DNA from: a virus
Taxonomy: Duplodnaviria; Heunggongvirae; Uroviricota; Caudoviricetes
Strand: one strand, 5' to 3'
Virus record (IMG/VR): IMGVR_UViG_2713896899_000008
DNA: 6,453 nucleotides
A model generated the notes under the pieces. That model was given only the letters and a program-made list of their open reading frames with translations. It was not told the origin of the DNA and did not search any database. Made by a program: the position numbers and the translations under genes. Shown here piece by piece: positions 5,704 to 5,986 of this stretch. Within the stretch, counting starts at the first letter, position 1. Every line of letters begins with the position of its first letter.

Positions 5704-5986
5704 AAACAACCTCTTGTTTGTTGGGTTTGGGTTATCATACATGACTGATTGTTGCGATTTTGTATCGTAATGTTTCTGTTTGTTGTCTTTTGTGTTGTTT
5801 GTCTCTTTAGTGTTCTGTGTGTGACTATGTACATTCTGTATAGTGGGGGCTCCCGTTGGTGCAGAGAATAACGAAATCTGAAAATAACCGTTTTCAGTTG
5901 TGGCGCTCGCAACAAAAGCGCATGCTGACTGTGCGAAGATAATCTCGCTGTGACGAGTAATCTCGAACGTCATTGTTTTCATTTAT

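Follow-up and report, generated by a model that had tools for sequence, protein, structure and literature searches.

Morons are extra gene cassettes carried by phages. Those of lambdoid phages are characterised, in the wording attributed to Juhala et al. (2000) by PMC4104026, as promoter-gene-terminator cassettes. Lambdoid prophages also carry small RNAs in the cargo site considered here, convergent with late transcription, and one of these, AgvB, is a mimic of the C/A-rich sequence (CACAACA) that the host small RNA GcvB targets (Tree et al. 2014, PMC4104026). The same source states that Hfq binds A-R-N repeats near Shine-Dalgarno sequences (PMC4104026). Yang, Figueroa-Bossi and Bossi (2014, PMC3879156) described ACA motifs as enhancers of translation that act from flexible positions upstream of the Shine-Dalgarno sequence, and found that the ACA triplets of GcvB target sites act as such enhancers. 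The YagU protein of E. coli K-12 is an inner-membrane protein that is strongly induced by external acid (PMC2270276). The locus described below, an A/C-rich tract upstream of a yagU gene in a prophage, has features in common with each of these systems.

The window (the whole stretch of 6453 nt that was analysed) is a lambdoid prophage sequence containing the sok RNA beside hokD, DUF968, RusA and Q (the antiterminator), four tRNA genes, the minus-strand DUF1440/YagU gene and a holin gene from 6419. The best matches were the E. coli prophages NZ_CP039404 (99.5% identity over 5000-6453) and NZ_CP148323 (L002; about 93% over 1359-6016), and only those two of 5426 complete E. coli genomes carry yagU at this place. 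The exact YagU protein was found in 601 blocks of a large assembly collection, with the Q ... holin context in all ten places shown. Distant BLAST of 5704-5990 recovered four more E. coli prophages, which matched over 5865-5990 only. The late region of one of these, L040 (NZ_CP059835), has no yagU and consists of Q, tRNA-Ile, tRNA-Lys, a 47-nt spacer, the equivalent of 5865-6042 (90% identity) and holin, so that window position 4822 is joined to 5865; in another, L041, homology covers 4667-4978 and resumes at 5852-6045 after a different gene, and the junction is 4978 to 5852. Since prophages without yagU join position ~4978 to ~5852/5865, yagU and its flanks are an inserted cassette of about 870 bp (~4979-5851). 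Its left border is the phage tRNA array at 4667-4976 on the plus strand (CAT anticodon, annotated as tRNA-Ile, then Lys, Thr and Gly; identified by ARAGORN, Rfam and annotation), just after which L041 diverges. Judged from these alignments, the cassette is inverted relative to late transcription and lies between the Q/tRNA region and the lysis genes, and 5704-5851 is a block that travels together with yagU. The preliminary description had treated all of 5704-5900 as the 5' region of the gene; that assignment stands for 5704-5851, which is cassette flank, and fails for 5852-5900, which is phage backbone. The backbone segment as a whole (5852-5986, plus strand) is 90% identical to the post-tRNA DNA of L040, which has no yagU, and 73% identical in L041, and its copy in L002 has diverged and contains indels.

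As a discrete insertion of about 870 bp between Q/tRNA (PR') and the lysis genes that is missing from homologous prophages, and as a unit with its own flanks and a 3' hairpin, the yagU cassette resembles the lambdoid morons. It differs from them in being inverted with respect to the late operon and in showing neither a clear sigma-70 promoter nor a canonical intrinsic terminator that could be recognised. The hairpin has a 13-bp stem directly 3' of the yagU stop codon (5084-5121, minus strand) and is not followed by a U-run; the fold of 5145-4977 gave -41.7 kcal/mol, far more stable than shuffled sequence (z-score -3.76). The terminator scan did not call this hairpin as a terminator; it is possibly the end or a stabiliser of the cassette transcript.

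The gene itself encodes a YagU-family (DUF1440) inner-membrane protein of 187 aa (5140-5703, minus strand; Pfam PF07274, E 8e-38; PGAP), and its Shine-Dalgarno sequence AAGAGG (5710-5715, minus strand), a good one read from the sequence 6 nt before the ATG at 5703, is invariant in 15 of 15 related loci. PGAP places the same 187-aa gene with the same ATG in two E. coli prophages, L001 and L002, in keeping with the earlier view of the tract as the non-coding 5' region of a YagU-like gene. The tract is evident from composition. G+T on the plus strand is 0.67 over 5704-5900, 0.72 over 5704-5840 and 0.84 over 5770-5830, compared with a mean of 0.51 (sd 0.07) in 100-nt windows across the 6453 nt; the 100-nt maximum at 5714-5813 (80% G+T on the plus strand) is the top of the whole window, 4 SD above the mean, and none of the 100-nt windows of this sequence reached the opposite extreme (G+T of 0.25 or less). 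GC and AT skews are +0.46 and -0.65 over 5750-5849, and the bias ends at about 5850, the skews of 5850-5949 being 0.02 and 0.09. Thus the A/C bias ascribed to 5704-5900 holds up to about 5850, and the last 50 nt of that interval lie outside it. The minus strand of the tract is rich in A and in C, the C's being isolated, and poor in G, and on it the hexamers ACAAAC, CAAACA and CAACAA are each present in three copies. The G+T maximum and these repeated hexamers confirm that the stretch is of low complexity and A/C-rich (GT-rich on the plus strand), as first reported. We delimit the 5' flank of the yagU cassette to 5704-5851 (minus strand), based on the composition maximum, the ACA count, the border seen in prophages without yagU and the lack of structure, and within it an A/C-rich, ACA-rich, G-poor core defined by composition at 5745-5830 (minus strand).

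The tract is strongly enriched in ACA. There are 17 ACA triplets in the 127 nt from 5830 to 5704 on the minus strand; elsewhere in the window the number per 127 nt is 2.0 +/- 1.5, with a maximum of 7. Mononucleotide shuffles of the tract contained 7.6 +/- 2.4 ACA and only 0.1% of them reached 17 (p ~0.001), indicating that the ACA pattern exceeds what base composition provides. The enrichment extends to the Shine-Dalgarno sequence, and by reading, two ACA lie within 12 nt of AAGAGG. From these sequence features, the explanation that we favour, and to which we give about an even chance of being correct, is that the tract is the upstream flank (promoter region plus leader) of a yagU cargo moron with an ACA-type translation-enhancing character. 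The transcribed part would comprise at least the last ~25 nt, ACCCAACAAACAAGAGG, and the whole tract if the start site lies farther upstream. The unstructured A/C-rich leader would then offer a landing site to the ribosome, of the ACA-enhancer type present in the GcvB targets yifK and dppA, and would allow efficient translation in the lysogen of a foreign membrane-protein gene that has a weak promoter; any portion preceding the start site would count as AT-rich promoter-upstream DNA. With respect to yifK and dppA (PMC3879156), the resemblance lies in multiple ACA within unstructured RNA that immediately precedes the Shine-Dalgarno sequence and in an A/C-rich, G-poor composition. The difference is that the tract is far longer, about 125 nt with 17 ACA as opposed to 1-4 ACA, and that yagU is prophage cargo and not an amino-acid transporter gene. 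Several observations count against an enhancer. The relatives from other genera and K-12 yagU have no A/C-rich upstream sequence, meaning that the tract is not a family feature, and the only sigma-70-like promoter candidate is weak and would leave most of the tract untranscribed; the density of variable sites in near-identical copies and the cassette border in L002, both described below, also weigh on this side. The earlier proposal that a CA-rich leader may enhance translation is therefore upheld in part: ACA is enriched beyond composition up to the Shine-Dalgarno sequence, whereas a start directed by TATGAT would leave 5745-5830 outside the transcript. The tract is otherwise an ordinary upstream flank, if a compositionally odd one. 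Should it be a working ACA enhancer, it would illustrate how translation in a lysogen is secured for a phage cargo gene whose promoter signals are poor, and with its 17 ACA it would be an extreme natural example of the type.

We also considered whether the tract belongs to a known class of RNA. The RNA from 5830 to 5690 (141 nt) has a minimum free energy of -13.5 kcal/mol with a z-score of -0.19 relative to shuffles, and the tract RNA is thus predicted to be without stable structure. Rfam gave no match to the tract at gathering scores in a search of the window and nothing relevant at E values up to 10 in a search of 5600-6453. AgvB and AsxR (RF02702/RF02703), whose covariance model covers a conserved 3' region of about 42 nt, likewise gave no match in the window or at E up to 10 over 5600-6453; the control search of Sakai Sp5 detected AsxR with 88 bits, AgvB with 41 bits and STnc100 with 208 bits. 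There are resemblances to AgvB/AsxR, in that the tract occupies the cargo-insertion site, which lies downstream of Q and PR', is oriented against late transcription, is A/C-rich in a way that recalls GcvB target sites, and contains A-R-N repeats. However, it runs into a Shine-Dalgarno sequence and a coding region, unlike those 51-60-nt RNAs with a terminator. A short RNA of the AgvB/AsxR type was also rejected on the grounds that there is no minus-strand terminator of its own before the yagU start, the terminator scan having found none between the tract and the start codon.

The location of the transcription start has a strong bearing on these interpretations. The -10-like hexamer TATGAT that the preliminary description placed about 30 nt upstream of the start codon was found at 5739-5734 (minus strand), separated by 30 nt from the ATG at 5703, and is paired with TACAAA as the -35 sequence at 19-nt spacing. 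It is the best promoter candidate, top-ranked on the strand of the gene, and is invariant in L001, L002 and L027-L039; however, it is weak, as its position-weight score of 4.9 is not above background (a score of 5 or more is reached by 304 sites in the window). A consensus promoter scan of 5000 to 6400 detected none on either strand, and position-weight and consensus scans of 5704-6060 gave no convincing promoter on either strand, the high plus-strand scores coming from T-rich pseudo -10 hexamers that lack A at position 2. An informal inspection by eye for PhoP, OmpR, Cra, LexA and sigma-54 motifs in the tract and in a palindrome at 5877-5896 revealed none. A start set by TATGAT would place most of the tract (5745-5830) upstream of the transcript and limit the leader to the ~25 nt given above.

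It is conceivable that the tract acts as DNA, being the AT-rich upstream region of a weak, activator-dependent or H-NS-silenced TATGAT promoter with only about 25 nt transcribed. We consider this unlikely, although TATGAT is invariant in all copies, G+C over 5700-5850 is 0.34-0.37, and the acid induction of K-12 yagU (PMC2270276) implies regulator-dependent promoters in the family. A strong A+C strand asymmetry would not be expected of a signal in duplex DNA, the candidate has no recognisable -35 or extended -10 and no regulator site that could be recognised by eye, and the A-runs, also judged by eye, are ~6-14 bp apart and out of helical phase. Another explanation is that the tract has no function at all and arose by slippage or duplication of short CAA/ACA units, to be carried along at the edge of the cassette. 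Consistent with such an origin, Tandem Repeats Finder reported a loose 18-nt period (2.1 copies, 5777-5814) in addition to the repeated hexamers, and the tract is missing upstream of all sampled relatives. The closest other protein has 79% identity, and the DNA upstream of its gene is unrelated and lacks A/C richness; among 24 relatives from other genera there was no A/C bias upstream of yagU except for a mild one (0.63) in L019; and K-12 yagU, which belongs to the same DUF1440 family, has an upstream A+C of 0.50 compared with 0.67 for the tract and 7 compared with 18 ACA in 190 nt. In a distant BLAST search with the tract, 5704-5851 occurred in no further genomic context within E. coli genomes and phage records gave no hit, and megablast against plasmid records gave no alignment covering the tract. 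By these comparisons the tract is peculiar to the prophage copy. Moreover, in 14 further copies that are 98-99.8% identical, 5 of 127 nt are variable in the tract and 7 of 230 nt in the neighbouring backbone, and this SNP density, which is not below that of the flanking DNA, gives no sign of purifying selection at the depth of 14 near-identical copies. Nevertheless, the tract sits exactly where expression signals must be, its ACA enrichment extends to the Shine-Dalgarno sequence, and the divergent L002 keeps near-identity between the ATG and about -123, beyond which it drops to about 60% with indels, and has neither gained nor lost repeat units in the preserved part. The break at about -123 can be attributed to the border of a mosaic module and does not necessarily reflect selection on the leader. 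On balance, we regard the absence of any function as quite unlikely. Least probable by far is that the region is coding or acts on the plus strand, through an N-terminal extension of YagU, a hydrophobic peptide, or a G/U-rich mimic of GcvB within a late or tRNA read-through transcript. The corresponding ORFs do exist. One of them (5982-5140, minus strand, 280 aa) extends the yagU frame through the tract and is given by one gene caller (P0001). In L002, however, an in-frame stop codon interrupts this extension and the ATG is missing; the extension has no homologues, the Pfam match is restricted to residues 115-258, and the 120 YagU relatives are 181-190 aa in length. A translated 280-aa protein covering the region, which had been named as an outcome that would speak against a leader, is therefore not conserved, and the gene model can be corrected to 187 aa instead of 280 aa. 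The other ORF, on the plus strand at 5770-5871, would specify a 33-aa peptide rich in Val, Cys, Phe and Leu (MFLFVVFCVVCLFSVLCVTMYILYSGGSRWCRE); it is present as first described and was rightly suspected to be compositional, as it is reduced to 22 aa in L002, all of the differences alter an amino acid, and it has no Shine-Dalgarno sequence. Judged by the sequence, the 33-aa ORF is a by-product of G/T richness and the tract is apparently non-coding. Plus-strand transcripts must traverse the tract before they reach the terminators at 5987-6043, and we examined the G/U-rich strand as a GcvB mimic; its predicted pairing with dppA, oppA and gltI (-43, -42 and -48) was no better than the background of -39.9 +/- 6.1 for control 5' regions.

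The remaining alternative concerns the host GcvB and Hfq. The suggestion that the A-rich repeats are candidate Hfq sites gained no support from a comparison with shuffled sequence. With A-R-N sites defined as at least 4 repeats with no more than 1 mismatch, or as 5 with no more than 2, the tract has 7 and 15 hits, respectively; the figures are 1.0 and 1.5 elsewhere in the window and 7.5 and 11.7 in shuffles of the tract (fractions 0.59 and 0.24), so the repeats are no commoner than A-richness gives, and the longest perfect A-R-N run is 3. One could envisage, however, that the tract lies within a long 5' UTR, started upstream of ~5785, and is a GcvB target in which the R1 region pairs with 5783-5750, silences the enhancer and ties yagU to the host amino-acid regulon; as a corollary, an abundant leader could soak up GcvB, as the prophage small RNA AgvB does. 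RNAduplex, used in a procedure that recovers the known GcvB sites of dppA, oppA and gltI and with GcvB of E. coli (matched at 100% identity in the genomes of that species) as the query, predicted that the whole R1 region pairs with 5750-5783 of the minus strand (-80 to -47 relative to the start) through 26 pairs at -28.0 kcal/mol. This energy equals that of dppA (-28.6 kcal/mol), a further likeness to that enhancer, and beats that of oppA (-23.3 kcal/mol), while gltI, which is bound equally far upstream, gave -38.7 kcal/mol; it also beats all 36 control 5' regions (-20.3 +/- 3.3, best -26.6), and K-12 yagU differs in pairing at the background level (-19.8). That GcvB targets are ACA-rich enhancers (PMC3879156) and that prophages encode a mimic of a GcvB target at a comparable site (PMC4104026) are also in line with such targeting. 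Against it, 17.7% of dinucleotide shuffles of the tract pair with GcvB as well as the tract does, other places in the window reach -30, and the consensus CACAACA has no exact copy in 5704-5851, which contains six copies with one mismatch. The energy is thus explained by composition. The leader started by TATGAT pairs at -13.4, within the background of -14.9 +/- 4.0, and it follows that GcvB targeting would be possible only with a start site far upstream, where no promoter is visible; in addition, YagU has no known role in amino-acid transport. GcvB targeting is possible, with nothing beyond composition to support it in the pairing model, and we hold this explanation to be improbable. Were GcvB to bind the tract, it would constitute a second, independent lambdoid-prophage route into the host GcvB network from the same site as AgvB. 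A bolder proposal, and one that we consider a long shot, is that the ACA leader of about 125 nt is both a strong enhancer and a high-capacity binding site for GcvB and Hfq, in which case the cassette would be wired into the host amino-acid regulon and titrate it as an mRNA-borne counterpart of AgvB that evolved independently at the same insertion site.

Several further features lie outside the flank. Two tandem intrinsic terminators of the phage backbone (5987-6013 and 6014-6043, plus strand), detected by the terminator scan, are present in L040, and the first is present in L002 as well. In the cassette-free prophage they directly follow the tRNA genes, and this arrangement suggests that 5987-6043 terminates the tRNA or PR' transcript and has to be read through by Q-modified polymerase. 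The palindrome at 5877-5896 in the phage backbone, CTGAAAA-N6-TTTTCAG, is perfect over 7 bp and is kept in L040 with a different loop; it is weakened in the diverged L002, and the adjoining block TTTCAGATTTCGTTAT is conserved there. It may be a weak plus-strand hairpin or a protein-binding site. The plus-strand stretch 4439-4550 holds a PR'-like promoter, TTGCAA-17-TATATT, overlapping the 3' part of Q, and after it a strong terminator for both directions at 4519-4542, and a second promoter-like site, TTGCAA-17-TATTAT (4629-4657, plus strand), is located just before the tRNA array. If the site before the tRNA genes is active in lysogens, read-through would produce an RNA of about 1 kb antisense to yagU before 5987-6043 is reached. 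The first tRNA (4667-4742, plus strand) was called Met (CAT) by ARAGORN and tRNA-Ile by PGAP in L001 and L002, like ileZ of the Stx phages. The arrays vary in composition, being Ile-Lys in L040, Ile-Arg-Thr-Gly in L041 and Ile-Lys-Thr-Gly in the window.

In the early-right region, 1576-1750 (plus strand) corresponds to the sok antisense RNA (Rfam RF01794, 115 bits) of the hokD/sok toxin-antitoxin locus. At the other end of the window, three hairpin-plus-T-run elements lie upstream of the holin gene, at ~6243-6275 (plus strand), ~6320-6345 (bidirectional) and 6358-6380 (plus strand), and the 6240-6380 region is without the convergent small RNAs of the Sakai prophages (STnc100, AsxR/AgvB). The sequence from 6255 to 6453, which has no Rfam family match, is common to more than 3500 E. 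coli genomes at 88% identity or higher. The homology with L002 breaks after the first of the tandem terminators (window position 6016), and a gene for a 176-aa hypothetical protein and an AraC-family fragment are inserted before the holin gene of that prophage (L002 5152-5879), which points to further mosaicism at the cargo site.
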